This document shows, piece after piece, positions 7,085-40,381 of a stretch of 64,000 nt of DNA. Position numbers and translations under genes: made by a program. This DNA is from Ancylomarina sp. (GTDB taxonomy: Bacteria; Bacteroidota; Bacteroidia; Bacteroidales; Marinifilaceae), in contig JBLWWJ010000003.1 in assembly GCA_048268005.1 (NCBI GenBank), positions 383,502 to 447,501 on the forward strand. Reading direction: 5' to 3'. The stretch's first letter is position 1. Every line of letters begins with the position of its first letter. Below the pieces are notes generated by a model that did not search any database, was not told where the DNA came from, and saw nothing but the letters and a program-made list of their open reading frames with translations.

Positions 7085-7131
7085 CGCGGATATTTGATAT
7101 TACATTTCAGTATTGAATTTTATGCTTGATA

Positions 7132-11848: not shown

Positions 11849-11908
11849 TTCTTGTTTAATTAATCAACTTAAATTTCTTATTGATTTATAGATTTACATC
11901 GATCCTAA

Positions 11909-11925: not shown

Positions 11926-11987
11926 TTTCCATAAATGCATATTATTTAAACACTTAGATAGAACGACATCAATAAATGTGTAAATAA

Positions 11988-12008
11988 ATTAGACAGGCCT
12001 TGTCTAAT
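11988..12008. promoter_or_regulatory. 21-nt near-perfect palindrome ATTAGACAGGCCTTGTCTAAT (possible enhancer-binding-protein site)
   Basis: Ten of ten arm positions pair (one is G-T). It lies about 65-85 bp upstream of the candidate -24 element, in the divergent intergenic region. Confidence 0.3.
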
Positions 12009-12088
12009 TTTTTGAAAAGCTTTCTACTTTAGATAAAAAATAGAACTTGTTGTATAGAAAAAATGAATTTCATAGCACAGTCAAAAAA

Positions 12089-18258: not shown

Positions 18259-19566
18259 TTAATCATGATTCGTTACAACATGCTCCTTAAGTAGGGCCTT
18301 AAGTGGATTAAATATGCGCTGAAGCAAGCGTTGATCTTCCGTAATAATCTCAGCAACGCCTTCTATCTTTTGAGCAAACTTCAATTTAATTCCATAATTA
18401 GTTACAAGCCCATTGGCAAGCTCTACATCCAAACTATAGTTATCACCTTCAGGCACCTCCGAAATGGAGCGAATACGTCCCTCAAGCATACCATACTCCA
18501 TATAGGGGTAGTTATTAAGCTTGATATTTACCCTTTGTCCCAGTTTTACTTTACCTGAACGAGTCATGCCTAACTCCACACGTGCAATAATCTGAGTTGA
18601 ATCGAATGGAAGTACCGTAAACACCTTATCTCCTAGTTTTACATTTTGGTTCGCAGACCAAAAACTATTAAAACTTACTGATCCATCAATGGGTGATTTA
18701 AGCAGGTAATTCTGTTCCCACATATCAATCTGAGCCACTAAATTATCATTGGCATGTAGAATAATATCTTGTAATTCTTTTCTCTGTTTTTCCTTATCAA
18801 GATCTAAATCTATGATTTCCTGGTCAACCTGATTAATCTGAATCTGTGTTGACGACAAAGTAGAACGTGAACCATGAAAGGCATAGCTTTGTTGTAAATA
18901 GATTTTCTCAGATTTCTGATATTCTGCCTTAGAAATAACACCTCGTGTATACAGTAAAGAATCTCTATGGAACTCCCTTGAAACAATAGTTAGTTCCTTC
19001 TCCAGAATAGTACGCTGCTTGTATTGACGATTATAATACATCCGGTAATTACTCCTTTTCTGGATCAAAGACGCTTTTTTCTTTTTGTGATATTGCAAAT
19101 CAACAAAACGGTTATAGTCCGCACAAGCCTTTAAATAATTATTAAACACGACCTGCACCTCTCCTAGTCTGTAATCCTTATCTTCATAAACAGTACCTAT
19201 TGGTTTTGTTCCATCAAGTATCGGACTATTCTTTTTCAACTCCTCACTTAAGCTGAAAATATCTTCAAAATTCGCTGGATTCTCAATAACAGCTAACAGT
19301 TCTCCACTAACAACCTTCTGTTTATCTTCCACCTTTAATTCAACAATCTTACCATTTGCTCGAGCAATCAACTCAGCGGGTGGATTCTCGGTAGTCAAAA
19401 CTAACTTTGATTCGATAATCTCAGGGTAAGAGAAAAACCAGGAGCCAATAACCAATATCAGCACCACAAGAAATACTAAGCCCGAACCAACTCGAATGAT
19501 CCATGATGGCATTTTCCCAAGAATTTCCTGAACCGACTCTGATCTTAATTCTATATTATCACTCAT
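18259..19566 (-). CDS. HlyD-family secretion (membrane-fusion) protein, partner of the C39 ABC exporter
   Basis: N-terminal TM (WIIRVGSGLVFLVVLILVIGSWFF), lipoyl-like hairpin, and coiled coil. It lies in the same strand and operon context as 20109..22316. Confidence 0.85.
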   Translation of the reverse strand: MSDNIELRSESVQEILGKMPSWIIRVGSGLVFLVVLILVIGSWFFSYPEIIESKLVLTTENPPAELIARANGKIVELKVEDKQKVVSGELLAVIENPANFEDIFSLSEELKKNSPILDGTKPIGTVYEDKDYRLGEVQVVFNNYLKACADYNRFVDLQYHKKKKASLIQKRSNYRMYYNRQYKQRTILEKELTIVSREFHRDSLLYTRGVISKAEYQKSEKIYLQQSYAFHGSRSTLSSTQIQINQVDQEIIDLDLDKEKQRKELQDIILHANDNLVAQIDMWEQNYLLKSPIDGSVSFNSFWSANQNVKLGDKVFTVLPFDSTQIIARVELGMTRSGKVKLGQRVNIKLNNYPYMEYGMLEGRIRSISEVPEGDNYSLDVELANGLVTNYGIKLKFAQKIEGVAEIITEDQRLLQRIFNPLKALLKEHVVTNHD

Positions 19567-20108: not shown

Positions 20109-22316
20109 CTAATTTCCAAGTTCTAACTGATTCTTAACCAATTCGTAATACCTACCTCTCAATTGAGTCAGGTCATTATGGCTGCCATGTTCAACAATTT
20201 GGCCTTTATCCAGGACAATAATTTTATCGGCATTGCGAACGGTGCTTAAACGATGGGCAACAACCACAACCGTACGTCCCTGATTGAATTCATCCAGATT
20301 CTCCATAATGGCTCTTTCGTTGTTGGCATCCAAAGCATTGGTGGCTTCATCGAAGAAAAGGAATTCTGGGTTCTTATAAACTGCTCTAGCGATTAAGATT
20401 CTTTGCTTTTGTCCCTGACTTAAACCATGACCATTAGCTCCAATTTTTGTATTATAACGCAAAGGTAAACTGTCAATAAACTCTTGTATACAGGCTACTT
20501 GTACAGCATAAAGCAGACGTTTCTTATCCACTATCTCATCACCAACGGCAATATTCTTAGCAATGGTATCAGAAAAGATAAAACCATCCTGCATCACAAC
20601 ACCACAGTTCTGACGCCACATGGCTGAGCTGTAATTTTGAATGGAAACCCCACCCAAATTGATCTTTCCCTTAGTTGCTGGATAGAAGCCCAGCATAAGT
20701 TTAATCAAGGTCGTTTTTCCGGAGCCAGAAGCACCAACAATAGCCGTAGTTTTACCTTTGGCAACATTCAAGTCAACTTCATTCAGCACCATCTCAGAAT
20801 GTGGGCCTTCGTATTGAAAACTTACTTTCTCAATATGAATGGATTTATCTTCAGGTAATTCAATTAACTTTTCATCTTTCTCAATCTCTTCATCATCCAT
20901 TTCATGAATCTCACCCAAACGCTCCAATGATATTTTAGCATCCTGCCAGGAGTGAATAAACTGCACCAAATTATCGATAGGCGAATTCAACTGACCGAGA
21001 ATATACTGAACGGCCAGCATCATACCCAAAGTCATACTCCCATTAACCACAGCTTGGGCAGCTAAAAATGTAATCACAATATTCTTGGTTTCATTGAAGA
21101 AGACCGATCCCGAAACCTGATACTGATTCAGAGCTAAACCTTTAGTTCTTACTTGAAACAATTCAGCCTGAATATTTTCCCACTCCCAACGCTTCTGCTT
21201 TTCACAATTATTGAGCTTAATTTCCTGCATCCCTGTAATCAGCTGCACAAGCGAATTCTGATTGCTTGAGAGCTGTGCAAATCGCTTACCATCCAATTCA
21301 CGGCGCTTTTTTAGGAAAAGATTAATCCAGAGAATATAAAGTGATGATCCCAAAAGAAAAACACCGAATATGGTCATATCATAAATTGCCAATACAACTC
21401 CGAATATCAGAAGATTAACCATAGAGAACAGAATGTTCAGGGTAGATGAAGTCAGGAAATTTTCGATACGCGTATGATCCTGTATGCGCTGTAAAAGATC
21501 ACCAATCATCTTGATGTCGAAGAAACCAATGGGCAGTTTCATCAACTTAATCAGGAAATCGGAAATCAGGGAAATATTAATACGAGTTGAAATATGCAAA
21601 AGAATCCAGGAGCGAATAAACTCAACGGATATACGCGAAATAAAAAGCACCATCTGTGCGATGAGTACCAGATAAATAAAACTCAAATTTTGAGTATTGA
21701 TACCCACATCAACCACCGATTGGGTGAGGAATGGAAATATAAGTTGTAGCATACTTCCGAAAAGCATGCCCAGGAATAATTGAAAAAGAAACTTTTTATA
21801 AGGCTTTAGGTAGCGCAAAAGAAAAGCGACACTCTTTTTCTTGCTATTACTCTCATCCTTCGCTTTATAAAAATCAGGTGTTGGTTCAAGAAGCAAACAG
21901 AGTCCCTTCAAGTCTCCATCTACCTTAGTCGACGCCCAGGATTTGACAAATTCCTCTTTTGTAAATTTCAACATTCCTGAAGCCGGATCAGCAACATGAA
22001 CGATGGTTTTATTCTTCTTTTTCTCAATTTTGTGAACCACCACAAAGTGAGCTTGATTCCAATGACAAATGGCCGGTAATGTCGCTTGCTCTGCCAGCTG
22101 CTCAAAGGTAATTCGCACCCCCATGCTCCGAAAACCAATGCTCTCAGCCGCATCAGCAATCCCCATCATCGACACACCTTCACGAGTGATATAAGATTTA
22201 TCACGTAAGGATTGCAAACTATAGGTTTTACCATAAAACTTCGATATCATGCGCAGGCAAGTTGGCCCGCAGTCCATGGCATCGAGTTGACGAAAATGGG
22301 GAAATTTCTTTTTCAT
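20109..22316 (-). CDS. Peptidase-C39-domain ABC transporter (double-glycine peptide cleavage/export)
   Basis: N-terminal C39 domain with catalytic Cys (QLDAMDCGPTCL) and His (NQAHFVVVH), a 6-TM domain, Walker A GASGSGKTT, signature LSQGQKQR and Walker B FLFFDEATNALD. Confidence 0.95.
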   Translation of the reverse strand: MKKKFPHFRQLDAMDCGPTCLRMISKFYGKTYSLQSLRDKSYITREGVSMMGIADAAESIGFRSMGVRITFEQLAEQATLPAICHWNQAHFVVVHKIEKKKNKTIVHVADPASGMLKFTKEEFVKSWASTKVDGDLKGLCLLLEPTPDFYKAKDESNSKKKSVAFLLRYLKPYKKFLFQLFLGMLFGSMLQLIFPFLTQSVVDVGINTQNLSFIYLVLIAQMVLFISRISVEFIRSWILLHISTRINISLISDFLIKLMKLPIGFFDIKMIGDLLQRIQDHTRIENFLTSSTLNILFSMVNLLIFGVVLAIYDMTIFGVFLLGSSLYILWINLFLKKRRELDGKRFAQLSSNQNSLVQLITGMQEIKLNNCEKQKRWEWENIQAELFQVRTKGLALNQYQVSGSVFFNETKNIVITFLAAQAVVNGSMTLGMMLAVQYILGQLNSPIDNLVQFIHSWQDAKISLERLGEIHEMDDEEIEKDEKLIELPEDKSIHIEKVSFQYEGPHSEMVLNEVDLNVAKGKTTAIVGASGSGKTTLIKLMLGFYPATKGKINLGGVSIQNYSSAMWRQNCGVVMQDGFIFSDTIAKNIAVGDEIVDKKRLLYAVQVACIQEFIDSLPLRYNTKIGANGHGLSQGQKQRILIARAVYKNPEFLFFDEATNALDANNERAIMENLDEFNQGRTVVVVAHRLSTVRNADKIIVLDKGQIVEHGSHNDLTQLRGRYYELVKNQLELGN

Positions 22317-28496: not shown

Positions 28497-28674
28497 TGTA
28501 TTGTTTAGTCAACTAAATAGGGCGGCGAAGTTACAAAAGATTGTTGAATATTAATACAGTGCAATTAGAAGTCTCTACGCATAGAGTTCGAAAAATAACT
28601 GATCTGATAATTTCAATCACGACCAATGCATTTATCAGATAAATTTTCAAGGATTTTATAAAACTCTTAAAACC

Positions 28675-29514
28675 TTAATATTTTAAGATTCGGACCTTCA
28701 TTTTCACATCTTCATAAGGCCTATCGTGTTTATCCGTTTTTAAATTTGCAATCTTATCCATCACTTCAAAACCGGAGATGACTTCACCAAAAACAGTATA
28801 ATTCTTGTCAAGATGTGGAACACCACCAAGAGTCGTTAACACCTTTTTTTGTTCATCAGTGAAGATGAGCTTCTCGTTGGAACTCTCATAATCAAAACTA
28901 ATATTCGATTTAATCTTATTCGCGATCTCACTGAATTCCTTAACTTTTTTAAGTTTTTTCAATGAATCAAGTATCTGTCTCTTTTTAGGTGTAAGATACC
29001 GCTTAACGATTCGTTTTCTTAAAGGAATATTCACAGCTTTTTCCATCGCCGTTAATTCCTCAATCGTGTAGACTCTACCGTGTGCAATATAAAATTGAGA
29101 AATGTCTGATTCTTTAAAAACATTGACCTTGTCGGGCTGACGAGCGGCGGCCAAAGCTCCCTTTTTATGGAAATAGTGCGGGCGAAATTCAGATTCAATC
29201 GTTCTGTTGGAACTACCATAACCAATCTGTCTGCCAGGAGATGCGTTTCTCGAGTCCTGAGAACCTCCCTGCAACACAAATCCCTTTATCACCCTATAAA
29301 ATAGAGTTCCATCGAAATGTTTATTTTCGATTAGCTGCAAAAAGTTCTTACGATGCTTAGGTGTATCCTTATAGAGCATCAACTTTATATTACCCAAATT
29401 GGTTTCAATCAATACGATTGAATTGGTAAGCTTATCCTGAGCCATTAATTCTCCTTTGCTACATAAAATGAGCAACAGAAAAGCAAACGATAATATCTTT
29501 TTAATCTGATTCAT
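28675..29514 (-). CDS. Cyclophilin-type peptidyl-prolyl cis-trans isomerase (secreted, with helical insertion)
   Basis: FYRVIKGFVLQGG, SQFYIAHG and YTVFGEVISG motifs. The ORF track start is 29535; the signal-peptide-consistent start MNQIKKILSF is at 29514. Confidence 0.9.
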   Translation of the reverse strand: MNQIKKILSFAFLLLILCSKGELMAQDKLTNSIVLIETNLGNIKLMLYKDTPKHRKNFLQLIENKHFDGTLFYRVIKGFVLQGGSQDSRNASPGRQIGYGSSNRTIESEFRPHYFHKKGALAAARQPDKVNVFKESDISQFYIAHGRVYTIEELTAMEKAVNIPLRKRIVKRYLTPKKRQILDSLKKLKKVKEFSEIANKIKSNISFDYESSNEKLIFTDEQKKVLTTLGGVPHLDKNYTVFGEVISGFEVMDKIANLKTDKHDRPYEDVKMKVRILKY

Positions 29515-29538
29515 GGCGAAAATTAACTTTGTCAATCC

Positions 29539-29576
29539 AAAAAAACAAAAAAAGCTCCGAATGTTCGAAGCTTTTT
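29539..29576 (-). terminator. Intrinsic terminator after the upstream cyclophilin gene
   Basis: agctccgaa/ttcgaagct hairpin flanked by A/T runs. Confidence 0.7.
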
Positions 29577-29600
29577 CTTAAAATATAGAATGATTTCCTT

Positions 29601-30422
29601 CTATTGAATAATCGTGATTTTCATTTTCATATCCTTTAGGGGACGGTCATTATCATCCGTATTCTCAGCAGCAATCTTATCAATAATATCAAGTCCTTCA
29701 ATCACCTCTCCAAAAACAGTATAGGCCTGATCTAAATGAGGAATACCACCAATAGTTGAATACGCTTCCTTCATTGAATCAGTTAAAACTAAAGTCTGAG
29801 ATACAGAAATTGAATCAATTTTTTGTTTCATCTCCTCCATCTTAGAGTTGAATTTATCAAACTCACCATCTTTCTGTAATTTAGTCAGCTCCTCCTTATA
29901 TTGTGCTCTTTGATGCTCAAAAATTGCGTTTGTTCGTTTCTTATTGATATTAACAACTAAAGCCTCTAAAGCTTCCGGCTCATAAACTTTTCCTTGAGCG
30001 ATATAGAACTGAGATCCCGAGGATTCTCTTTTTGGATTAACCTGATCACCTTCACGTGCCGCAGCAATCACGCCTTTTTTATGGAAAAGATTGGGATGAA
30101 ATTCGGCCGGTATATCATAACCGGGTCCACCTTCACCTAACATCACACCAGGCTTCGCTCCCTTAGAATCAGGATCACCACCTTGTATCATAAAGCCATC
30201 AATGACACGATGAAAAAGAGTTCCATCGAAAAAACCACCATGAGCCAACTTGATGAAATTATCGCGATGCCCTGGTGTTTCATCATACAGTTTGATTTTA
30301 ACTGCACCGTATTCCGTATCGATCTGAACAATGCGATTTTTTTTACCAAGCTTGACAGGCGTCTTACAAGAATAAGCTCCAGCCAAAAGAATAATTAAAC
30401 TAAAAGTGATGAGTTTGTTCAT
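29601..30422 (-). CDS. Cyclophilin-type peptidyl-prolyl cis-trans isomerase lipoprotein
   Basis: FHRVIDGFMIQGGDP, SQFYIAQG and YTVFGEVIEG motifs. I prefer the start MNKLITFSLIILLAGAYSC (lipobox) at 30422, which removes the overlap with the upstream ORF. Confidence 0.9.
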   Translation of the reverse strand: MNKLITFSLIILLAGAYSCKTPVKLGKKNRIVQIDTEYGAVKIKLYDETPGHRDNFIKLAHGGFFDGTLFHRVIDGFMIQGGDPDSKGAKPGVMLGEGGPGYDIPAEFHPNLFHKKGVIAAAREGDQVNPKRESSGSQFYIAQGKVYEPEALEALVVNINKKRTNAIFEHQRAQYKEELTKLQKDGEFDKFNSKMEEMKQKIDSISVSQTLVLTDSMKEAYSTIGGIPHLDQAYTVFGEVIEGLDIIDKIAAENTDDNDRPLKDMKMKITIIQ

Positions 30423-30444
30423 TGTTTCGTAATTATAGATTGAT

Positions 30445-30807
30445 TTATTGAGAAATTTGAGCATCAAGATAAGCGTTCTCTTTGAAGTATTCGACAATAG
30501 ATGACTTCAAAAGTAATTCTTCTTTATCCTTTGAAAAAGGAGGTATCATTTTATTTTTTTTGAAGATTGGCCACTTATCTTCATCATATCCTTCTATCGA
30601 ATAGTAATTCCATTTCATCAATAATCGACATGTTGCAAGATTAATCAAAGCCATTTTATCATCTTTCGAATAATTTTCTTTGAAGCCTTCTTCACGTTCC
30701 TGGATGCCAATTAGCAACAATGTGCCATTTAAATCAGCATCCACATTAAAATCTTCAGAAATTTTATATAAAAGTTTATTCCAGTCACTTTCTAAATTAT
30801 TGTCCAT
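30445..30807 (-). CDS. Hypothetical protein (120 aa)
   Basis: ORF only. It is co-directional with the cyclophilin genes. Confidence 0.5.
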   Translation of the reverse strand: MDNNLESDWNKLLYKISEDFNVDADLNGTLLLIGIQEREEGFKENYSKDDKMALINLATCRLLMKWNYYSIEGYDEDKWPIFKKNKMIPPFSKDKEELLLKSSIVEYFKENAYLDAQISQ

Positions 30808-31580: not shown

Positions 31581-31612
31581 GGGTTACTTTTTGCAAAAAG
31601 AAGGAATAAAGG
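31581..31612 (+). promoter_or_regulatory. Bipartite motif GGGTTACTTTTT-N10-GGAATAAAGG upstream of the sigma gene (candidate autoregulated alternative-sigma promoter)
   Basis: Both blocks and the spacing are identical to 39165-39196. The spacer contains the palindrome CTTTTTGCAAAAAG. The motif ends 10 nt before the ATG at 31623. Confidence 0.55.
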
Positions 31613-31622
31613 AGTAGATAAC

Positions 31623-32183
31623 ATGGATTACACAACAGAAGCAATTCTAGAAGGAATTGAAACGAGCAATAATGATGTATTAAATTACATCTATCGCAAG
31701 TTCTTTCCTGATACTTGCAGATTCGTTGAAAATAATAGTGGAACCAGTGAGGACGCACGCGACCTCTTTCAGGAGGCTATTATTGTAATTTATCGAAAGA
31801 TGAAGAAAGCACCCATTGTGCTGACTTGCAATTTTAGAACGTATATCTACTCTGTTTGCCGACTATTGTGGTTAAAAAAACTTGAGAAGAGGAATGATAA
31901 TCTTGATATTATCAAATCAGATGTGGTGTTAGACCAACAGGTTGACGATGTAAGTAAATCTTACGAGCAAACTGAAAAATACCGTCTGTATCAGAAGCAT
32001 TTTAAACGATTGCCTGCTGATTGTCAGGAAATAATGAAACTTTATCTTGAGAAAGTATCTGCAAAAGAAATTGCAAAAAAATTAGGCTTTGCCGGAGAAG
32101 ATTACGTGAAATCCAGAAAATATAAGTGCAAGCAAACACTTATAATGAATATTAAAAGCGATAATCAATTTACCGAAGTATGA
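31623..32183 (+). CDS. RNA polymerase sigma-70-family factor, ECF-like (regions 2 and 4 only)
   Basis: 186 aa. Region 2 is DLFQEAIIVIYRK. Region 4 HTH is LPADCQEIMKLYLEKVSAKEIAKKLGF. An ATGA stop/start overlap joins it to the next gene. Confidence 0.9.
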   Translation: MDYTTEAILEGIETSNNDVLNYIYRKFFPDTCRFVENNSGTSEDARDLFQEAIIVIYRKMKKAPIVLTCNFRTYIYSVCRLLWLKKLEKRNDNLDIIKSDVVLDQQVDDVSKSYEQTEKYRLYQKHFKRLPADCQEIMKLYLEKVSAKEIAKKLGFAGEDYVKSRKYKCKQTLIMNIKSDNQFTEV

Positions 32184-32923
32184 TGAACGAAAAAAACTTT
32201 GACCGAATAGAAAATTATCTAGACGATCAGCTTAACGAAAATGAAATCCTAGATTTTGAAAAAGATCTAATGGATGATCTTGATTTGGAGATGGAATTAA
32301 ATCTTCACAACGAGATAAACGAAGCCATTATGGAAGAAGATGTCATGGAGCTTAGAAGCAAACTCGAAGCGATTGATATCCCTACCCCTAAAGAAAAGCG
32401 CAAAGTAAGATTCCAAGGGAAATGGAGAATTGCTGCTGCTTCTTTGATTCTTTTTATAGGTATGGCTGGCATATACTCAATGCTTGGCAATAAAACATAC
32501 AGCAATGAAGAAATCTTCAATAGCTATTACAAACCTTATGGAATTGTAAGTAATACACGTTCTGCCACGGATACAGATAAAGTTCTGGAGCAAGCTTTAC
32601 AATCCTATGAGGCTAAAAACTATCGAGCTGCTTTATCATTATTCCAAACAATACTAGATAAAGACAGTACCAATTTAACGAGTAATTTTTACTCGGGTAT
32701 TTCTAATATTCAAGTGCAAGAATACCCCAAAGCGAATAAAAATTTTATTCGTGTACTAAAACACAAAAATAACCTGTTTATAGAGCAATCTGAATGGTAT
32801 TTAGGAATTTGCTACCTAATGACTAATGAAAGAGAAAAGGCTAAGGAAACCTATAGTGCTATTGCCAAAGGAAATAGTTTCTATAGAACGAAAGCCAAAG
32901 AGATTCTCAATAAACTGGAATAA
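32180..32923 (+). CDS. Anti-sigma-like membrane protein: cytoplasmic acidic N-domain, one TM, periplasmic TPR domain
   Basis: Translationally coupled to the sigma gene. The N-terminus FDRIENYLDDQLNENEILDFEKDL is typical of Bacteroidota anti-sigma-like proteins. TM helix is WRIAAASLILFIGMAGIYSML. C-terminal TPR-like repeats. Confidence 0.7.
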   Translation: MMNEKNFDRIENYLDDQLNENEILDFEKDLMDDLDLEMELNLHNEINEAIMEEDVMELRSKLEAIDIPTPKEKRKVRFQGKWRIAAASLILFIGMAGIYSMLGNKTYSNEEIFNSYYKPYGIVSNTRSATDTDKVLEQALQSYEAKNYRAALSLFQTILDKDSTNLTSNFYSGISNIQVQEYPKANKNFIRVLKHKNNLFIEQSEWYLGICYLMTNEREKAKETYSAIAKGNSFYRTKAKEILNKLE

Positions 32924-32952
32924 ATCAATTCGTCATACTATCGTTAATACAT

Positions 32953-32987
32953 AAGGATTGTTCTAATAAGAACAATCCTTTCTTTAT
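32953..32987 (+). terminator. Intrinsic terminator after the sigma/anti-sigma operon
   Basis: aaggattgttc-taataa-gaacaatcctt hairpin followed by tctttat. Confidence 0.75.
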
Positions 32988-33107
32988 ATATAACTTTTGA
33001 AATAGCATGAACAATGCCAATTTTCTCTTTAGAGAGTTTAATTCACATCTTAAGTATAATACCGGCTATGCTAAAGTTCTGACTCTTTAGAAGCCTTAAA
33101 AAGACAT

Positions 33108-35984
33108 TTAAACGACTTCTAAATTTAATTTATCCAAATTTTGTTTCTTAGTCTTTTTAACTGAACGTTTCACTATGAAATAAATCCCACCCAAAAAAAG
33201 CGTAATTCCCAAAAGCAGCAGAATCTTATGAATCATACTAAACCTGAACAGGCTATCTGTATCACCAATGGCAACATAGCCAGACCAAAAGTATGGATGT
33301 GCTTTCAGGGCATCAGCCGTTTCTATATATTCCAGTTTAGCTCGCTGTAGGGCAGCATCTTTAGGAAAATTCTGAGACAAGTACTTATAAAATGAAGACA
33401 TTAAAGTAGATCCTGATAAATCTTCCACCGTCCAAAGTGTCATGATTAAGCTTGTACAGCCTGAATAAAAGAAACCCCTTGCTAAACTCATCACCCCCTC
33501 TCCTTTAAGAAATTTACCATCTCCCGAATTACAAGCACTCAAAACAACCATTCTGGCTTTAAGGTTCATATTATAAATCTCATGTGTATTCAATAAGCCA
33601 TCATTCAAACTATCATCGGTTTGAGTAAAAACCAATTTTGAATACATAGGATTGTTATCGTCTAATATTGTGTGCATCGCCAGGTGCAGGATATCAAAAC
33701 TACCGGCGTTTTTCTTGAAATTCGTTTCAGAAGCAAGTTCATCCGTATAAGTCTCACTTGCTAGTATCTTAGAAATATTCTCAACCTCTTCTTTAGCACC
33801 AGGTAAAGGAAAAAGATTGTTGTTACGAATATGTCTGGTTGTTAGAATTGAATCGCTCAATTTATTATAAGACGGAGCAAAAGCCAAATGCCTTTTTGAT
33901 GATGGTTTTGAAAGTCCTTTTTCAGGTCGTTTGTAAGCAATCGTAGCTGAGTTTTGATAACTGATAGGATTGTGACGTATCAGGTAATCCAAATTACGAT
34001 AATTCAAGCTCTCAGGGTCTCCTTTTTCCTTCAGTAATACACCAAAGGGCACATAGGCCAACTTGCCTTCAGGAACTACTATTAAATGCTTATTCAGAAT
34101 AATATCTTCATAAGGTTCGATTATAATTTGATAAAGCTTATGAGCTGCAGAAATATAGTCCTGGTGATATTTCATGCTATTACCAGAAAAATTATTGCTC
34201 TTTAAACTGGTTCGAATATTATTAATACTATTCTCAAACTCCCCATGTCTTAGACACACTTTTTTCATTTCGAAAAGGTCAGAACCTATAGCAAAAGAAT
34301 ACAAAGTGGAACCAGATAAAGCATATTCAAGTAATATTTCATCTTCTTTCAGCTGCTTTTGTACTTCATTTACAGAAATACTCGCATTATCATACTTTAA
34401 GACATAATACTCAGGATAATCCGTTTCAAAACGCTTTACCATTTGCTCATATTCAGTGTTCAATCCAAATAGAGTATGGCGCCAATTTGAGATTGAGTCT
34501 TGCATAGGATGAAACTGCTTTCTCTCCTGATAAATCTTATTTCGGTAATCAGCAATATCTTGTTTTAATTTATGCTCCAGATTTTGAAGCTTGATAGGGA
34601 TGCCTCCAAAAATTTTAGCATCTACATCATTTAAATAGTTACGCAAACTAGATGCCTTAGCTCTTTCTGAATAACTAAAAGCTTTCTCCTTGTAAATAGA
34701 ATTTAGACTCAGTTCATACAAATCAGCAGCGACTGAAATAGCAGAAGATAAAGTTTCATTTTCATTGGCACTCAATGCTAATTTTGATTCTTCATCCTGA
34801 TAAGCAATTTGAATTTGATCAATAATCTCAACACTCAAATCGAATGTATTCAGGGATGCTATCAGATACTTAATTTGTTTTGTTTCTCCATACAGCATTT
34901 GTAGGGTTGATGCCTTGTCATTTAAAATATCAATTGTCGACAACTGACCATCAATCTGTTGGATATTAGGATTCTGAGCAAACTCCTCTTCACAAAAATC
35001 ATAAGTGCTTGACACAAGCGCTTTTTGGTAGTACTCCAGAGCTTTAGTATAATTTTTATCCTTGAAATACAAGCCACCTAAGTTTTTCAAGCAATGAGCC
35101 GTATCAGGGTGCTTCAATCCAAACTTATCTAAATAAATTATAAACGATTTATTTAGATATTCTTCAGCCAAAGAATTATTATCTTTATCTAAATAAAATA
35201 TGGCATAATTCAAATAAAAGTTAGCCAAATCAGAATTACCATCACCATTGAATTTGATCGACTCATCAATACTCAATTTCAAATAGTGATTAGCCTCTTT
35301 ATCGTAGCCCAATATTCTATAGCAATTCCCAATATTAGTATAACTGGTTGAAAGGTCTGACACTTTCCTTACTTTCTTAATTTCTAAACCCTCGAATAAA
35401 TATCTGAGTGCATTATTATAGTCCTTATTGTTCTTAGAAGCCAGGCCAAGATTAGTGAAAATCCGACCTCTCCAACGTGAAGCTGAGGGATTCTTTTCAG
35501 TAATAAAAAGAGCTGCCTCATAAAATTTTTGTGCCTTTAAATTATCTTTCAAATGAAGATAAATATTACCCATATTCAGATAAATAGGCGCTAATTTACC
35601 AGATAACTCACCAAAGTGTTTTTTACAAATTACCTCTGCTGAATTCAGAAAAAACAAGGCGTTTTTATATTTTCCTAACCTGATAAGAGTAACTCCATAA
35701 TTGACTTTATACCGATAGAGAAGCTGAAAATCTTTCAATTCATTTTCGTCAATACTTGCTGCAGCCTGCTTAAAATAACTTTCTGCACCCTTATTATTTC
35801 GGGAACGCAATTCATTTACAGCCTTATTTAATAGAACAAGCAGGGAAGAGTCTGCGGATGTTATCACATCTGATTGAACGACTTGTGAAGGTATTGATGC
35901 TTTTACATGATAATTAAATCCACAAAACATTAAGAAGCATGCAGTAATCAGCAAATAAAGAAATGTTTCTTGTCTTTTTCTCAC
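33108..35984 (-). CDS. TPR-repeat CHAT-domain protein with signal peptide and C-terminal TM anchor (paralog 1)
   Basis: 958 aa with a GTG start. Signal peptide MRKRQETFLYLLITACFLMFCGFNYHVKA. About 400 aa of TPR repeats. CHAT domain retains the catalytic-type His (ILHLAMHT) and Cys (VVLSACNSGDG). C-terminal TM is ILLLLGITLFLGGIYFIV, followed by a basic tail. Confidence 0.9.
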   Translation of the reverse strand: MRKRQETFLYLLITACFLMFCGFNYHVKASIPSQVVQSDVITSADSSLLVLLNKAVNELRSRNNKGAESYFKQAAASIDENELKDFQLLYRYKVNYGVTLIRLGKYKNALFFLNSAEVICKKHFGELSGKLAPIYLNMGNIYLHLKDNLKAQKFYEAALFITEKNPSASRWRGRIFTNLGLASKNNKDYNNALRYLFEGLEIKKVRKVSDLSTSYTNIGNCYRILGYDKEANHYLKLSIDESIKFNGDGNSDLANFYLNYAIFYLDKDNNSLAEEYLNKSFIIYLDKFGLKHPDTAHCLKNLGGLYFKDKNYTKALEYYQKALVSSTYDFCEEEFAQNPNIQQIDGQLSTIDILNDKASTLQMLYGETKQIKYLIASLNTFDLSVEIIDQIQIAYQDEESKLALSANENETLSSAISVAADLYELSLNSIYKEKAFSYSERAKASSLRNYLNDVDAKIFGGIPIKLQNLEHKLKQDIADYRNKIYQERKQFHPMQDSISNWRHTLFGLNTEYEQMVKRFETDYPEYYVLKYDNASISVNEVQKQLKEDEILLEYALSGSTLYSFAIGSDLFEMKKVCLRHGEFENSINNIRTSLKSNNFSGNSMKYHQDYISAAHKLYQIIIEPYEDIILNKHLIVVPEGKLAYVPFGVLLKEKGDPESLNYRNLDYLIRHNPISYQNSATIAYKRPEKGLSKPSSKRHLAFAPSYNKLSDSILTTRHIRNNNLFPLPGAKEEVENISKILASETYTDELASETNFKKNAGSFDILHLAMHTILDDNNPMYSKLVFTQTDDSLNDGLLNTHEIYNMNLKARMVVLSACNSGDGKFLKGEGVMSLARGFFYSGCTSLIMTLWTVEDLSGSTLMSSFYKYLSQNFPKDAALQRAKLEYIETADALKAHPYFWSGYVAIGDTDSLFRFSMIHKILLLLGITLFLGGIYFIVKRSVKKTKKQNLDKLNLEVV

Positions 35985-36184
35985 TTTGGGGTATTAGTTT
36001 AAAAAAACTGAATGTGTGACAAATAAGGTCGTGAAATTATGAAAAACATAGAATTTATTTATGTTTTTAAGAAAAAAAACTCCATCCTCTTCCAGGAAAC
36101 ATCCTCATATAAAGTGAGATTCAAATGCAATACTTTTGCTTAACCAATCATGTTAACACAGGATGTGTTGCAACCACAAAACGA

Positions 36185-39058
36185 CTAGACTATGTCTAAC
36201 TCATCTAAACTTTGTTCTTTAACCTTTTTAGATGTTGAGCGCTGCCAAACAAAGTATAGACCTCCAAACAAAATAGTCAGTCCCAGAAACATCAAAATCT
36301 TATGAATCATACTAAATCTGAATAAGCTTTCAGTATCACCAATGGCAACATAGCCCGACCAGAAATAGGGATGTGATTTCAAAGCATCAGCTGATTCAAG
36401 ATATTCCAACTTTGCTTGTTGTAAAGCGACATCTTTAGGAAAACTTTGAGATAAATATTTATAAAATGAAGACATTAAAGTAGAACCCGATAAATCTTCC
36501 ACAGTCCATAGTGTCATAATTAAACTTGGGCAACCAGAATAGAAGAAACCACGTGCTAAACTCATCACACCCTCTCCCTTAAGAAATTTACCATCTCCCG
36601 AATTACAGGCACTCAAAACAACCATTCTCGCTTTAAGATTCATATTATAAATTTCATGGGCATTCAATAAGTCATCATTCAAACTATCAGCGGTTTGAGT
36701 AAAAACCAGTTTTGAATACATCGGATTGTTATCATCTAAAATAGTATGCATAGCTAAATGCAGAATATCAAAACTCTCAGCATTATTTTTAAAATTCGTT
36801 TCTGAAGCCAAATTATCGATATAGGTCTTACCGTTAAATATTTTAGAAATATTTTCCACTTCAACTTTAGCGCCAGGTAAAGGATAAAGCTTGTTGTCGT
36901 GAGCTTGCCTGGTTACCAAAATTGAATCACTCACATTATCATAAGAAGGAGCAAAAGCTAATAGCCTTTTTTCTGAAGACATAGAGAATCCTATATCAGG
37001 ACGCTTGTAAGCTATTGTAGCTGAATTTTGATAACTAATCGGGTTGTGACGAATAAAATAATCTAAATTACGGTAATTCAAGCTCTCAGAATCTCCTTCT
37101 TCTTTTAGTAATACGCCAAAAGGTACATAAGCCAATTTCCCCTCAGGAACAATAATTAGGTGCTTATTCCCGATCACATCTTCGTATGGCTCAATCATAA
37201 ATTGATAAAGCTTATGTGCGGCAGAAATATAATCCTGATAATATTTCATGCTATTACCCGAAAAATCATTGGTCTTTAAACTGGTTCGGATTTTTGTGAT
37301 ACTTCTCTCCAATTCCCCTTTTCTGAGGGGCATTTTTTTCATTTCGAATAGATCAGAACCTAAAGCAAACGAGTATAAAGTCGAATCAGATAAGGCATAT
37401 TCAATCAGAATTTCATCCTCTTTCAGTTGCTTCTGCAGCTCTTCAACAGAAATACTCGCATTATCATACTTTAAGGCATAATAATCAGGATGATCCGTCT
37501 CAAAACGTTTCACCATTTGCTCATATTCAGCATTCAAACCAAAGAGAGTGTGACGCCAATTTGAAATTGAGTCTTGCATGGGATGAAGTTGCTTTCTCTC
37601 CTGATAAATCTTATCACGGTAATCAGCAATGTCCTGTTTCAATTTATGCTCCAGGTTTTGAAGATCGATAGGAATACCTCCAAAAGTTTTAGCGTCAACA
37701 TCATTCAAATAGTTACGCAAACTAGATGCCTTAGCTCGTTCCGAATATCTAAAAGCCTTTTCCTTATAAATTGATTCTCCCGTGACTTCAAACAATCTCG
37801 CAGCCACTTCAATTGCAGTAGAGAAAGTTTCATTTTCGTTAGCACTTAACGCCAATTTTGATTCTTCATCCTGATAGGCAATATGAATTTGATCTATAAT
37901 ATCAACACATAAATCAAAAGTCTCAAGCGATAATTTTAGATATTTAACTTGCTTGGTAGTGTCGTAAAGCTTAAATAAGGCGGAGCCCTTATCATCAATA
38001 ATATCAAAAGTAGTCAACTGACCATCCACCTGCTGAATACTTGGATTCTGATCAACTTCTTCATTATGAAAATCATAGGTGCTGGAAATCAGTGCATTTT
38101 GGTAATACTCTAGAGCCTTAGCATATTCCTTATCCTTAAAATATAAGCCACCTAAATTTTTCAAACAATGAGCCGTGTCAGGATGCTTCTTTCCAAACTT
38201 ATCCAAATAGATTGAGTAGGATTTATTTAGATATGCTTTAGCCAATACACTATTTTCTTTAGAAGCATGAAAAATGGCATAATTTAGATAAAAACTTGCC
38301 AGATCAGAATTCCCCTCTCCGTTCAATTTGATGGATTCCTCAATACTCCAATTTAAATAATGATCGGCCTCCTTATCATAGCACAATTCTTTATAGCAAT
38401 TCCCAATATTATTCAAACTTAAAGAAAGATCTTTAATATTTCTTTCCTTCTTTATTTCATAACCTTCTATTAAAAATTTTAGAGCATTATTATATTCCTT
38501 ATTGCTTTTATAAACTAAACCAAGGTTATTAATTATTCGATCTCTCCAGCGTGATGCCTCAGGGTTTTTCTCAACAATAAATAAGGCTGCCTCATAAAAT
38601 TTTTGAGCTTTTAAGTTATCCTTAGAATTAAAATAAATATTACCCATATTAACATATATCGGGGCTAGTTTTCCGGATGATTCTCCAAAATGATTCTTGC
38701 AAATAGTTTCAGCTGCATTAAAATTAATCAAAGCTTTCTTAAATTTCCCTAACCTAACAAGTGTGGCCCCGTAATTGACTTTATAGCGATACAAAAGTTC
38801 ATGATTCTTTAAGTCATTCTCATTTATGGTGTTTTCAGCTTGTTGGAAATAGCTCTCCGCCCCCTTGTTATTTCGGGAACGCAATTCATTTACGGCCTTA
38901 TTTAGCAGAACGAGCAAGGAAGAATCGGCAGATGTGGTCACATCTGATTGAAAAACGGGTGATGGCTTTGATGCTTTTGCATGAAAATTCGATCCACAAA
39001 AGATAAAAAAGCATAAAGAAATCAGCAGATATCGAAATATTTCTTGTTTTTTTTTCAC
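36185..39058 (-). CDS. TPR-repeat CHAT-domain protein with signal peptide and C-terminal TM anchor (paralog 2)
   Basis: 957 aa with a GTG start, collinear with paralog 1 over its full length. It has the same His/Cys motifs, signal peptide and C-terminal TM. Confidence 0.9.
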   Translation of the reverse strand: MKKKQEIFRYLLISLCFFIFCGSNFHAKASKPSPVFQSDVTTSADSSLLVLLNKAVNELRSRNNKGAESYFQQAENTINENDLKNHELLYRYKVNYGATLVRLGKFKKALINFNAAETICKNHFGESSGKLAPIYVNMGNIYFNSKDNLKAQKFYEAALFIVEKNPEASRWRDRIINNLGLVYKSNKEYNNALKFLIEGYEIKKERNIKDLSLSLNNIGNCYKELCYDKEADHYLNWSIEESIKLNGEGNSDLASFYLNYAIFHASKENSVLAKAYLNKSYSIYLDKFGKKHPDTAHCLKNLGGLYFKDKEYAKALEYYQNALISSTYDFHNEEVDQNPSIQQVDGQLTTFDIIDDKGSALFKLYDTTKQVKYLKLSLETFDLCVDIIDQIHIAYQDEESKLALSANENETFSTAIEVAARLFEVTGESIYKEKAFRYSERAKASSLRNYLNDVDAKTFGGIPIDLQNLEHKLKQDIADYRDKIYQERKQLHPMQDSISNWRHTLFGLNAEYEQMVKRFETDHPDYYALKYDNASISVEELQKQLKEDEILIEYALSDSTLYSFALGSDLFEMKKMPLRKGELERSITKIRTSLKTNDFSGNSMKYYQDYISAAHKLYQFMIEPYEDVIGNKHLIIVPEGKLAYVPFGVLLKEEGDSESLNYRNLDYFIRHNPISYQNSATIAYKRPDIGFSMSSEKRLLAFAPSYDNVSDSILVTRQAHDNKLYPLPGAKVEVENISKIFNGKTYIDNLASETNFKNNAESFDILHLAMHTILDDNNPMYSKLVFTQTADSLNDDLLNAHEIYNMNLKARMVVLSACNSGDGKFLKGEGVMSLARGFFYSGCPSLIMTLWTVEDLSGSTLMSSFYKYLSQSFPKDVALQQAKLEYLESADALKSHPYFWSGYVAIGDTESLFRFSMIHKILMFLGLTILFGGLYFVWQRSTSKKVKEQSLDELDIV

Positions 39059-39164
39059 TGTAGAAAAATAGTTTTAAAAAGCTGAATTTGTGACAAATAG
39101 GCCCTGCGAAATTATTCAAAACATAGGACATATTTATGTTTTTGAAAAAAAACTTTCACTTTCC

Positions 39165-39196
39165 GGGTTACTTTTTATCCAAAAAGGGAATAAAGG
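39165..39196 (+). promoter_or_regulatory. Bipartite motif GGGTTACTTTTT-N10-GGAATAAAGG upstream of the peptide genes
   Basis: Same two blocks and spacing as at 31581-31612. The spacer keeps the inverted repeat CTTTTT-atcc-AAAAAG. The motif ends 43 nt before the ATG at 39240. Confidence 0.55.
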
Positions 39197-39239
39197 GATG
39201 TAAAACGATTCCAATATTCACTTTATAATTTAAATAACC

Positions 39240-39341
39240 ATGGAAAATTTTGAAATTCTTAACGCTGAACAATTATTAGAAGTAAAAGGTGGTCATAATG
39301 AACTAACTCAGAAAGATAATGTAGAAGATTGTATCGTTTAA
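39240..39341 (+). CDS. Double-glycine-leader peptide precursor, 33 aa (MENFEILNAEQLLEVKGG / HNELTQKDNVEDCIV)
   Basis: Found by hand translation; it is below the ORF-track cutoff. The leader has GG at -1/-2 and hydrophobic residues at -4, -7, -12 and -15. It is duplicated 133 nt downstream with only synonymous changes after codon 2. Confidence 0.75.
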   Translation: MENFEILNAEQLLEVKGGHNELTQKDNVEDCIV

Positions 39342-39372
39342 TTTTTTTATTAATTTTCCAAAATATACTATT

Positions 39373-39474
39373 ATGAATAATTTCGAGATTCTTAACGCTG
39401 AACAATTATTAGAAGTAAAAGGTGGTCATAATGAACTAACTCAAAAAGATAATGTAGAAGATTGTATCGTTTAG
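39373..39474 (+). CDS. Double-glycine-leader peptide precursor, 33 aa (MNNFEILNAEQLLEVKGG / HNELTQKDNVEDCIV)
   Basis: Second copy. It differs from the first by residue 2, three synonymous codons and the stop codon. Confidence 0.75.
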   Translation: MNNFEILNAEQLLEVKGGHNELTQKDNVEDCIV

Positions 39475-39553
39475 TCACCTACTAAAATAAAGTGGTCAAA
39501 TTCAAAAGCCACGATAACTCTCACAATAAAGTACCATTAGAAAAGATTCCTGA

Positions 39554-40381
39554 ATGGATAAACGTCCGACTTACTGCGAGCTTGAAGAACAGTTAGCAGA
39601 GGCATTACAAAGAGCAGAAGGAGCAGAAGATTTAAAGAATGCTTTCCTTGCGAATATTTCACACGAAATACGCACGCCCATGAATGCTATAATCGGAGCA
39701 TCGGACATCCTGCGAGACGAATCACTCACTAATGACGAACGAAATGAATTTGCTTCTATCCTAAATATTAGCAGCCGTTCACTTCTCGATTTACTCAATC
39801 GAATTATAGATTTATCCCAATTGGATTCAGGCATCATGCAAGTCAATGAATCCGAAATTGATCTGGAAGCGATTATCATTAGATTATTCTCAATCTATGA
39901 TGAAAAAATCAAAGTTCTAGATAAAGACATTACAATTGATTACAAAATCAATTGCCTTAATCCCAATATTATAATTGATGGTGAAAAGCTGGAGAAATCA
40001 ATCAGCTATCTACTGGATAATGCCATTAATTTTACACAATCAGGAAAAATTCAACTCTCTTGTTCCTTACAAGATGATCAGAACCTTGAAATCTTTGTAA
40101 AAGATACAGGTGCAGGAATTAGCGTTTCCCAACAGCAAGCAATCTTTGAAAGATTCAATCAGGTTGATAATTCATATACACGCAAGCAATCTGGTGCGGG
40201 CATCGGTTTGAGTCTGTGCTCACGTTATATAAAATTGATGAACGGTACTCTAAAACTTGATTCTGAATTAGGAAAAGGCTCTACTTTTCATCTATCCATT
40301 CCATGTTACCACAAGTCTGATGAACTTGAAATTGTAGAAACGGCAACAGATATTCAAAACAAGAATACGTTTGTAAAATAG
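39554..40381 (+). CDS. Soluble histidine kinase (coiled-coil + HisKA + HATPase; no TM, sensor or receiver domain)
   Basis: H-box FLANISHEIRTPMNAI, N-box LLDNAINFT, G-boxes DTGAGIS and GAGIGLS. It starts 79 nt after the second peptide gene on the same strand. Confidence 0.9.
   Translation: MDKRPTYCELEEQLAEALQRAEGAEDLKNAFLANISHEIRTPMNAIIGASDILRDESLTNDERNEFASILNISSRSLLDLLNRIIDLSQLDSGIMQVNESEIDLEAIIIRLFSIYDEKIKVLDKDITIDYKINCLNPNIIIDGEKLEKSISYLLDNAINFTQSGKIQLSCSLQDDQNLEIFVKDTGAGISVSQQQAIFERFNQVDNSYTRKQSGAGIGLSLCSRYIKLMNGTLKLDSELGKGSTFHLSIPCYHKSDELEIVETATDIQNKNTFVK

Follow-up and report, generated by a model that had tools for sequence, protein, structure and literature searches.

A widespread sigma factor, transmembrane TPR and TPR-CHAT gene module with exported peptide or protein cargo in Bacteroidota: a possible envelope-signaling circuit

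In a 64-kb stretch of DNA from Ancylomarina sp. (the window), we found a module that combines genes for an extracytoplasmic function (ECF)-type sigma factor, a single-pass transmembrane (TM) protein with tetratricopeptide repeats (TPRs), two TPR-CHAT proteins, two peptides with double-glycine (GG) leaders and a histidine kinase. The module is conserved and widespread across marine and sediment Bacteroidota, and it looks like a new form of sigma factor control through proteolysis of an anti-sigma protein, in a circuit that would act at the envelope and possibly from cell to cell. We give an even chance to the complete reading, that of an envelope-signaling module made of a sigma factor, a TM-TPR anti-sigma factor, a TPR-CHAT protein acting in trans and an exported cargo. 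Genes in the window were located by a map of open reading frames (ORFs) and by domain scans, which bore out the gene content (sigma factor, TM-TPR protein, two CHAT proteins, two peptides and kinase), coordinates included, that an earlier note on this DNA had listed. The features of the module are the following.

31581..31612, plus strand: promoter-like motif P*, GGGTTAC-N16-GAATAAAGG, 11 nucleotides (nt) before the sigma factor start codon (motif search)
31623..32183, plus strand: ECF-type sigma factor, 186 amino acids (TIGR02937)
32180..32923, plus strand: single-pass TM-TPR protein, putative anti-sigma factor, 247 amino acids (ATGA overlap, AlphaFold2 [AF2] model, gene context)
32953..32980, plus strand: terminator-like hairpin with a 12-bp stem and a T-rich tail, closing the sigma/TM-TPR operon (hairpin scan)
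33108..35984, minus strand: TPR-CHAT paralogue 1, 958 amino acids (PF12770, E = 1.4e-59)
36185..39058, minus strand: TPR-CHAT paralogue 2, 957 amino acids (PF12770, E = 3.1e-58)
39165..39196, plus strand: motif P*, GGGTTAC-N16-GAATAAAGG, 45 nt before peptide gene 1 and divergent from TPR-CHAT paralogue 2 (motif search)
39240..39341, plus strand: GG-leader peptide gene 1, 33 amino acids, MENFEILNAEQLLEVKGG leader and HNELTQKDNVEDCIV core (ORF map, Pfam)
39373..39474, plus strand: GG-leader peptide gene 2, 33 amino acids, core identical to that of gene 1 (ORF map)
39554..40381, plus strand: histidine kinase, 275 amino acids, with a short coiled coil, HisKA and HATPase_c (Pfam)

In the circuit that we propose, the ECF sigma factor would be held at the inner membrane by the single-pass TM-TPR anti-sigma factor, whose small, basic 3-TPR domain would lie in the periplasm. 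This protein would be the trans substrate of one or two TPR-CHAT proteases, which would be anchored in the membrane, face the periplasm and act as a signal-dependent site-1 protease, with the conserved juxtamembrane loop around R127 as the candidate cut site, and the cut would license intramembrane proteolysis. The freed sigma factor would then use the P* promoter to transcribe its own operon and the exported-cargo operon, which in the window would consist of two GG-leader precursor copies followed by a sensor-less histidine kinase, a sigma-dependent output that would be active once made. After removal of the leader, the acidic 15-mer HNELTQKDNVEDCIV would be exported by a C39 ATP-binding cassette (ABC) exporter and an HlyD-family protein encoded at 18.3 to 22.3 kb, and at loci of the peptide type it could plausibly come back as the activating ligand of the periplasmic TPRs, giving an autoinducing, quorum-sensing-like loop.

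The gene-neighborhood check that the earlier note had proposed for these genes was strongly positive across families of Bacteroidota; a lack of co-occurrence of the peptide genes with the sigma/TPR/CHAT genes in other genomes, which that note had named as grounds for refutation, is clearly not what is seen. A search with an 8-sequence CHAT alignment over one genome per GTDB species returned at least 592 CHAT relatives, and the best 79 of these loci, a top-scoring set and not a random sample, were used for comparison (numbered here with the prefix L). They come from Marinifilaceae, Prolixibacteraceae, Lentimicrobiaceae and many Bacteroidales metagenome-assembled genomes (MAGs), and many of them are MAG contigs. 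For the counts of co-occurrence we used 40 loci, all of them from other species, in which the CHAT gene is flanked by at least 4 kb on either side. A TM-TPR homologue was found near the CHAT gene in all 40 and a sigma homologue within 8 kb of it in 38. A small GG-leader ORF lay just upstream of the CHAT gene in 30 loci, and a protein secreted through a type IX secretion system (T9SS) stood at the peptide position in 10, with exactly one of the two cargo types in each of the 40. Near the CHAT gene, homologues of the histidine kinase were present in 18 of the loci, the C39 ABC exporter in 8 and a LytTR protein in 6. Small ORFs and the motif were detected by regular expressions, and the GG-ORF detector, which is loose, gave hits in 8.8% of 2.75-kb control windows. 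In two Prolixibacteraceae loci (L062 and L075; CHAT at ~9750-12750), the peptide, TM-TPR and CHAT genes are present but no sigma gene lies within 10 kb; in close relatives of these loci, a sigma gene directly follows the CHAT gene.

The T9SS cargo proteins, which occur in Lentimicrobium-type and some other lineages, are ~340 to 430 amino acids long and carry SdrD_B/CarboxypepD_reg, dockerin and Por_Secre_tail domains (L002 8507-9517, L036 8059-9267 and L060 7443-8672; also L016, L030-L033, L040, L056, L057, L059, L064, L065, L067 and L074). They occupy the position of the GG peptide under the same promoter motif and are often co-directional with the CHAT gene. Because a T9SS protein replaces the peptide in a quarter of the loci, the exported product is certainly an output of the module and only possibly an input.

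The earlier note had also described a bipartite motif shared by the upstream regions of the sigma and peptide genes, and within the window this motif is confined to the two sites. The sequence GGTTAC-N16-(G)AATAAA has exactly two copies in the 64 kb, at 31582-31610 and 39166-39194, compared to 0.11 expected by chance, and none of 100 shuffles contained two or more. No third copy was found in the window even under relaxed patterns, including upstream of the exporter operon, and a scan of the window region for sigma-70-type promoters gave results no better than those from shuffled sequences. In other genomes, sigma genes of Labilibaculum, Marinifilum and many distant lineages are preceded by the motif at fixed spacing and with a varied spacer, and other genera also keep it ahead of the first GG-peptide gene. 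Since the half-sites are kept at fixed spacing while the spacer drifts, we regard this pattern as the phylogenetic footprint of a bipartite promoter.

When a generalized form of the motif ([GT][GA]T[TAC]AC[CT]TTT-N12-16-AT[AT]AA) was run over 1.37 Mb of loci, it gave 105 matches, 38 of which had a GG-leader ORF within 200 nt downstream, compared to a mean of 1.0 and a maximum of 3 at random positions. The 98 matches outside two pilot loci included 37 at GG ORFs, 29 at sigma genes, 11 at T9SS cargo genes, 3 at kinase genes and 3 at TM-TPR genes. Some clades have no such motif upstream of the sigma gene and instead carry a TAnnTTTG element of the Bacteroidetes housekeeping type, and in these clades variant motifs are found ahead of the peptide genes. 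On the strength of its recurrence before sigma and peptide genes across lineages, the motif appears to behave as the earlier note had suggested, like an autoregulated ECF-type promoter that also stands ahead of the peptide operon, and we are confident, though short of certain, that it is the promoter recognized by the module's own sigma factor. With this pairing, the sigma factor would regulate its own gene and the exported cargo; the kinase and a second TM-TPR gene would also come under its control in some lineages.

The window sigma protein passes the NCBIfam model for ECF sigma-70 factors (TIGR02937) with 63.5 bits against a cutoff of 42.9, which places this 186-amino-acid protein among the ECF (group 4) sigma-70 factors; its Pfam matches to Sigma70_r2 and Sigma70_r4_2 are sub-threshold. 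The ATG start codon of the TM-TPR gene overlaps the sigma stop codon (ATGA), and in the comparative loci a TM-TPR gene directly follows 44 of 67 sigma ORFs, with 41 of these 44 pairs overlapping or separated by no more than 15 nt. The TM-TPR protein begins with about 80 cytoplasmic residues of acidic character, followed by a K/R stretch, a single TM helix (residues 84 to 103) and a TPR domain. In the AF2 model (predicted local distance difference test [pLDDT], 78), the N-terminal domain is a cytoplasmic unit of about 65 amino acids with four helices, and the predicted periplasmic part forms a confident 3-TPR domain at residues 131 to 247. The family comprises ~1,170 clusters (50% identity) at E ≤ 1e-30, and public databases name its members "hypothetical," "TPR" or "YbgF family," never anti-sigma. 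The zf-HC2 anti-sigma family (PF13490) gave weak, sub-threshold matches to the N-terminal domain in 10 of 31 members (best E = 0.0096) and was the sole Pfam family to recur among the matches of this domain. In our view, the TM-TPR protein is quite probably an anti-sigma factor.

Several findings pull away from this assignment, which takes gene context and the weak zf-HC2 similarity as its basis. The N-terminal domain has no HxxxCxxC zinc motif, and the family consensus (IExYLxGELxxxExxxFExxLxxDxxLxxExxLxxEIxxAIxExDVMxLRxxLxxI) has no conserved Cys or His; a profile search of the PDB with this domain did not find an anti-sigma structure. In Prolixibacteraceae, the TM-TPR protein has about 500 amino acids and its cytoplasmic N-terminal module of ~55 amino acids is present four times (L054, at 5735-7258 and 7973-9496 on the minus strand, and L034, L042, L052, L062, L063, L066, L068, L069, L075, L076, L078 and L081), an arrangement that is unusual for anti-sigma domains. 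In addition, some 20 sigma genes lack a TM-TPR neighbor, the sole TM-TPR copy being in the peptide operon and often beside the kinase gene, so the TM-TPR protein could partly serve the kinase.

These same findings would suit a different role, in which the TM-TPR protein is not an anti-sigma factor and instead is the membrane sensor partner of the sensor-less kinase (a split peptide receptor-kinase), with the sigma factor controlled by other means and the CHAT protein processing the exported cargo or the receptor. The lack of a sensor in the kinase itself and the location of the TM-TPR gene between the peptide and kinase genes in L018, L026, L037, L051, L058 and L002 also agree with such a role. 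However, we consider it unlikely, given the tight coupling of TM-TPR genes to sigma genes described above, the presence of TM-TPR genes in 40 of 40 loci compared to 18 of 40 for the kinase, the recurrence of zf-HC2 among the N-terminal domain matches and the loss of HATPase_c from the kinase-like protein of L018-type loci.

Two further observations concern the TM-TPR protein and its gene. The best PDB match of the N-terminal domain profile (window 32180-32380) was 9zn4, a Nif11 domain-containing protein, with E = 4.9e-4 over 33 residues. Nif11 domains serve as leaders of GG-cleaved precursors of ribosomally synthesized and posttranslationally modified peptides (RiPPs), which makes the match curious at a GG-peptide locus; it is probably compositional. 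In L054, L066 and L069, a cassette of motif, GG peptide gene and TM-TPR gene is tandemly duplicated.

The part of the TM-TPR protein that lies between the membrane and the TPR domain is a candidate target for proteolysis. This juxtamembrane loop has low pLDDT in the AF2 model and carries the pattern YYxPY......RS. Within it (residues ~121 to 129; window 32540-32566), R127-S128 is at least 90% conserved among 66 distinct proteins, and we regard the loop as a candidate protease site or, alternatively, a candidate groove-occupying segment. The modeled TPR domain superposes on the peptide-binding proteins IpgC/SycD/PcrH, HOP TPR1 and CHIP, and also on BamD. The isoelectric point of the periplasmic domain is 9.0, compared to 4.3 for the exported peptide.

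The two TPR-CHAT paralogues of the window are 79% identical, and the tandem duplication is shared with Ancylomarina euxinus (L003). Both match several TPR families of Pfam besides PF12770, and both have a signal-like N terminus, a TPR array, a helical region, the CHAT domain, a C-terminal TM anchor and a K/R tail. Because of the signal-like N terminus, the absence of internal TM helices between it and the C-terminal TM segment, and the K/R tail that follows this segment, the bulk of each protein is predicted to be periplasmic. A comparison of the AF2 model of paralogue 1 (pLDDT, 83.3; predicted TM-score [pTM], 0.74) with known structures by Foldseek gave Csx29 as the best match (8eey_B; E = 4.2e-16), with human separase (E = 1e-12) and DdvA (8rot_A; E = 7.9e-12) also found. 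By sequence, the CHAT domain alone had no significant match in the PDB and the full-length CHAT profile matched TPR proteins only, so a comparison of folds was needed to reach Csx29, separase and DdvA. Residues H767, H771 and C818 are invariant across 39 homologues, and the spacing of H771 and C818 (47 residues) is close to that of H615 and C658 in Csx29 (43) and of H862 and C907 in DdvA (45). These proteins have two marks of a TPR-CHAT protease, a CHAT domain behind a TPR/helical array and a conserved His/Cys dyad.

Among the matches listed, the closest relatives of the CHAT proteins are from Ancylomarina (72 to 83% identity), followed by Labilibaculum and Marinifilum (~50%), all of them Marinifilaceae. 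Between genera, the N-terminal TPR array is 40% identical compared to 69% for the CHAT core, making the array the fastest-evolving part of the protein. We also observed that the duplication takes in ~100 nt of upstream sequence, TTTTTTTC..AAAACATAAATA..TATGTTTT..ATAATTTC..CCTATTTGTCACA.ATTCAG (in 35985-36184 and 39059-39164). Since this region was duplicated with the gene, both paralogues probably retain one common promoter type; the shared sequence differs from the P* motif.

Caspase-like proteases of this kind have been connected to sigma factors before. Of the known systems, DdvA/DdvS of Myxococcus xanthus comes closest. It pairs an ECF sigma factor with a transmembrane anti-sigma factor that has a periplasmic TPR-CHAT region, and the authors of the study on it found DdvA-like proteins in Myxococcota and one Comamonas species only (PMC11506125). 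Like DdvA/DdvS, the module has an ECF sigma factor, a single-pass anti-sigma factor (predicted here) and a TPR-CHAT domain with a His/Cys dyad predicted on the periplasmic side, and the proposed logic is the same, with a CHAT cut near the membrane leading to intramembrane proteolysis and sigma release. DdvA, however, is one polypeptide that contains the anti-sigma, TM and TPR-CHAT parts, whereas in the module the TM-TPR and CHAT proteins are separate: the anti-sigma protein has a small 3-TPR domain and no CHAT domain, and the CHAT protein (two paralogues in the window) has its own signal peptide and C-terminal anchor. The N-terminal domain of DdvA is a CHCC zinc domain, and that of the TM-TPR protein is without a Cys/His motif. 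DdvS controls a defense island (CBASS and CRISPR), in contrast to a local regulon here of GG peptides or a T9SS protein together with the kinase. The two systems are from different phyla, Myxococcota and Bacteroidota, and have no significant match at the sequence level. Because it has no single polypeptide with a zinc anti-sigma domain, the module lies outside the DdvA-type family, though it may be DdvA-like in its working.

For the trans-cleavage step, the closest known system is Craspase, a type III-E CRISPR complex whose TPR-CHAT protein Csx29 cuts Csx30, a protein that inhibits the ECF-like CASP-sigma (PMC10028731). In both cases, a TPR-CHAT protein would act in trans on a separate sigma-sequestering protein, as has been demonstrated for Craspase and is inferred here by analogy. 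In contrast to the module, which is predicted to be extracytoplasmic and has no CRISPR genes, Craspase is cytoplasmic, CRISPR linked and activated by target RNA through Cas7-11 and its crRNA, and Csx30 is a soluble protein with no relation to the TM-TPR protein. Compared to DdvA/DdvS, the module has its parts on separate proteins and adds exported peptides.

Anti-sigma factors are also known substrates of regulated intramembrane proteolysis, as in RseA/DegS/RseP for sigma-E and RsiW/PrsW/RasP for sigma-W, and the PDZ domain of DegS senses C-terminal peptides of outer membrane proteins. The proposed circuit would share with these systems a single-pass anti-sigma factor, a periplasmic site-1 protease responsive to a peptide-like ligand and an autoregulated ECF operon. 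It would differ from them in that the candidate site-1 protease is a clan-CD TPR-CHAT protein and not a serine protease or metalloprotease, the candidate ligand binders are TPRs and a dedicated exported peptide belongs to the regulon. Cutting after Arg is known of clan-CD enzymes such as separase. That the CHAT protein cleaves the anti-sigma factor on its periplasmic side, possibly in the R127 loop, is a step on which we find ourselves evenly divided.

The same precedents raise the idea that the module is an anti-phage regulator that works as DdvS/DdvA does and switches on a defense island, as both characterized bacterial pairings of TPR-CHAT proteins with ECF-type sigma factors (DdvA/DdvS and Craspase) are linked to defense. 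PADLOC, however, found no defense family for the sigma, TM-TPR or CHAT protein, and no defense genes recur beside the module, where the motif-bearing genes encode the sigma factor, the cargo, the kinase and the TM-TPR protein. The flanks of the window are also of housekeeping type, with PheS, cyclophilins, Sir2 and a phosphate transporter. We rejected a defense role on the PADLOC result and give it the least credence of all the readings considered. For the window kinase, PADLOC reported a weak match to a candidate-system model and nothing more.

We next consider the cargo of the window. Both peptide leaders end in LLEVKGG, and peptide gene 2 begins 31 nt past gene 1 with no motif copy of its own. 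A leader of about 15 to 35 amino acids that ends in GG, with hydrophobic residues at positions -4, -7 and -12, is the pattern of GG leaders in general; the window leader follows it, and it is common to 54 distinct members of the family. Our survey of the comparative loci yielded 82 peptide genes with 54 distinct cores of 7 to 36 amino acids (median, 15), of which 51 are net acidic (median net charge, -3.5). At the C terminus, many cores have a cluster of acidic residues and then hydrophobic or aromatic ones (EDCIV, DDYIV, EDILV, DDDLWPP, EDDEAWL, DLILIPD), and a C-terminal [ED][ED]x[IL]V is conserved in the orthologues of Ancylomarina, Labilibaculum and Marinifilum. Labilibaculum manganireducens (L001) has the whole module; its CHAT gene is single and its peptide genes form a tandem set of seven, in which the core is YNEMTDKSICDDYIV in six cases and VNEMTDKSICDDYIV in one. 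Genes had been called for just two of the eight peptide ORFs of this locus. These peptide genes (L001 8667-9795, minus strand) form an array of ~173-bp repeats behind a single motif.

Class II bacteriocins typically have GG leaders and C39 exporters, and we considered whether the GG peptides could be antimicrobial precursors of a bacteriocin or RiPP locus, with the sigma, TPR and CHAT proteins as its regulators, maturation factors or immunity factors. The leaders do have weak matches to families of this kind: those of the window score 21.6 and 18.8 bits against Bacteriocin_IIc of Pfam, under the cutoff of 27.1, TIGR01847 accepts the orthologous leader of Labilibaculum at 20.3 bits (cutoff, 15.7), and leader_Chryseo is also among the weak matches. 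The cores, however, at 7 to 36 amino acids and with 51 of 54 acidic, are unlike cationic or amphipathic bacteriocins, and none of them matches a curated family in NCBIfam, those of bacteriocins included. The module neighborhoods examined share no conserved modification enzyme or immunity gene, and a T9SS protein takes the place of the peptide in a quarter of the loci. We rejected the bacteriocin reading, which we regard as very improbable, on the absence of a core family in NCBIfam and on the acidity and very short length of the cores.

Processing and export of the peptides could be carried out by a pair of proteins encoded elsewhere in the window.

20109..22316, minus strand: peptidase-C39 ABC exporter (PCAT) with Peptidase_C39, ABC_membrane and ABC_tran
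18259..19566, minus strand: HlyD-family adaptor, partner of the PCAT (PF13437)

The C39 domain of the PCAT, the exporter to which the earlier note had pointed at this position, contains the catalytic-Cys motif QLDAMDCGPTCL. The gene is 17 kb away from the peptide genes. Orthologues with 60 to 71% identity lie inside the module in about nine lineages (L011, L018, L019, L020, L028, L071, L072, L077 and L079), with HlyD orthologues adjoining the PCAT there, and they are far more conserved than the CHAT proteins. In L018, the motif, GG peptide, TM-TPR protein, a protein with HisKA only, two stand-alone LytTR proteins, PCAT and HlyD are all on one strand. Because its orthologues are embedded in the module elsewhere, the distant window exporter is probably cognate, and it probably serves to process and export the GG peptides. 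In an apparent exporter operon, the PCAT and HlyD genes flank a gene for a 127-amino-acid "23S rRNA-intervening-sequence protein" (19640-20023, minus strand; PF05635 four-helix bundle).

GG-leader precursors of short unmodified peptides, a C39 exporter with its accessory protein and an autoinducing promoter logic are features that the module would share with Gram-positive loci such as ComC/ComAB/ComDE, BlpC/BlpAB/BlpRH and PlnA, and loci of the L018 type also share with them HisKA and LytTR proteins in the peptide operon. The module differs from these loci in that it has no membrane kinase that senses the peptide, its LytTR proteins have no receiver and are absent from the scanned part of the window, the central regulator would be an ECF sigma/anti-sigma pair with a TPR-CHAT protein, and the host is diderm. 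TPR arrays that bind short peptides are found in RRNPP receptors (Rap, NprR, PlcR and PrgX) and in HOP and CHIP, and the TM-TPR model superposes on peptide-bound 3-TPR structures. The acidic-hydrophobic ends of the cores (EDCIV, DDYIV, DDDLW) are reminiscent of ligands of the HOP/CHIP carboxylate clamp. In contrast to the TPRs of the module, which are predicted to be periplasmic, RRNPP receptors are cytoplasmic and their peptides are reimported.

On whether the exported peptide is also the input of the module, the data point both ways. The peptides seem signal-like in that they are short, unmodified, fast diverging and tandemly amplified, and the faster divergence of the CHAT TPR array (40% compared to 69% for the core) would fit a receptor that codiverges with its ligand. 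We regard a role of the peptide as input signal or ligand as possible, though somewhat doubtful. The full form of this idea, a new kind of peptide quorum sensing in many Bacteroidota in which the TPR array of the CHAT protease senses the GG peptide, cuts the TM-TPR protein at the juxtamembrane Arg and frees the sigma factor, is more tentative still. If it were true, the receptor would itself be the protease, the transducer would be a sigma/anti-sigma pair and not a two-component system, and the sigma factor would amplify peptide production and switch on a constitutive histidine kinase.

It is about as plausible as this full form that the sigma/anti-sigma/TPR-CHAT unit responds to a different cue in the periplasm or envelope (for example, foreign peptides, cell wall fragments, phage or secretion stress) and that the GG peptide or T9SS protein is purely an exported effector. 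The interchange of peptide and T9SS protein at one position and under one motif, with exactly one of them in 40 of 40 loci, is what would be expected of an effector, as is the precedent of DdvA, which responds to an external threat and not to its own product. The periplasmic domain of the TM-TPR protein is also much more conserved than the peptide cores. However, short unmodified acidic 10- to 30-mers with fast-diverging cores and tandem amplification resemble signals, the CHAT TPR array evolves as a codiverging receptor would, and the peptide operon of some lineages includes a dedicated PCAT, a histidine kinase and LytTR genes.

Returning to the proposed circuit as a whole, we note that a number of points count against it. 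Its mechanistic steps are all derived from sequence and structural models, the comparative loci were taken from the top of the score range, and CHAT autoproteolysis in DdvA is itself only proposed (PMC11506125). For the peptide loop in particular, a T9SS cargo in 10 of 40 loci means that peptide feedback cannot be the logic of the whole family. Between Ancylomarina and Labilibaculum, the periplasmic domain of the TM-TPR protein is ~72% identical while the peptide core has changed by ~50%. A PCAT and HlyD normally export across both membranes, bypassing the periplasm, so the peptide would need to reenter to reach the TPRs. The circuit interpretation in the earlier note is partly supported: the gene content, the shared motif, the co-occurrence of the genes and the exporter held up, and peptide sensing by the TPRs, cleavage of the TM-TPR protein by CHAT and positive feedback are candidate steps.

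We found no prior description of a module of sigma factor, TM-TPR protein, trans-acting TPR-CHAT protein and GG peptide in the full-text literature, a body that leaves most subscription journals uncovered, and the main text of the ECF reclassification paper makes no mention of CHAT. Peptide cell-cell signaling is well established in Firmicutes, and to our knowledge it has not been characterized in Bacteroidota. Few ECF sigma factors of Bacteroidota have a known input, and the module would link ECF signaling to peptide signaling. ECF sigma factors are described as the most abundant signal transduction device in Bacteroidota, at ~22 per genome (PMC7826278). The module would extend the connection between TPR-CHAT proteins and sigma factors from one myxobacterial anti-sigma factor and type III-E CRISPR to a large family, which suggests that control of sigma factors by caspase-like proteases is a general bacterial theme. 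Because peptide genes are inconsistently called and the names of TM-TPR proteins are uninformative, the system is hidden by current annotation. Each step of the circuit is directly testable, since it involves a defined sigma factor, a predicted promoter, a predicted protease, a predicted cleavage loop and a candidate ligand that can be synthesized.

The remaining gene of the window module encodes the histidine kinase, a cytoplasmic protein with neither TM helices nor a sensor domain, and thus without the TM or polytopic sensor of Gram-positive two-component systems such as ComCDE, Blp, Pln and Agr. The interval from peptide gene 2 to the kinase gene gave no terminator, and the kinase is probably cotranscribed with the peptide genes. 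In L002, L060 and L064, the kinase gene has a P* motif of its own. Other loci encode HisKA-only proteins, in which HATPase_c has been lost, together with one to three stand-alone LytTR proteins without a receiver domain (L018 6920-8487, minus strand; similarly L011, L012, L019, L020, L028 and L053), and these genes sit between the TM-TPR gene and the PCAT gene. In the window, a Pfam scan of roughly 30 ORFs of at least 100 amino acids between 17 and 46 kb found no gene for a LytTR or receiver (REC) domain protein. The kinase and, in some lineages, the LytTR proteins are further members of the regulon that the earlier model had left unexplained.

On the sigma side of the module, we observed synteny between Ancylomarina and Labilibaculum (window 27471-30807; L001 15227-18510). 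The syntenic genes are a 120-amino-acid ORF without a Pfam family, two tandem cyclophilin-type peptidyl-prolyl isomerases with signal-like N termini, PheS and a Crp-family regulator. On the other side of the module, a single ORF of 3,932 amino acids (49593-61391, minus strand) is by far the largest of the window.

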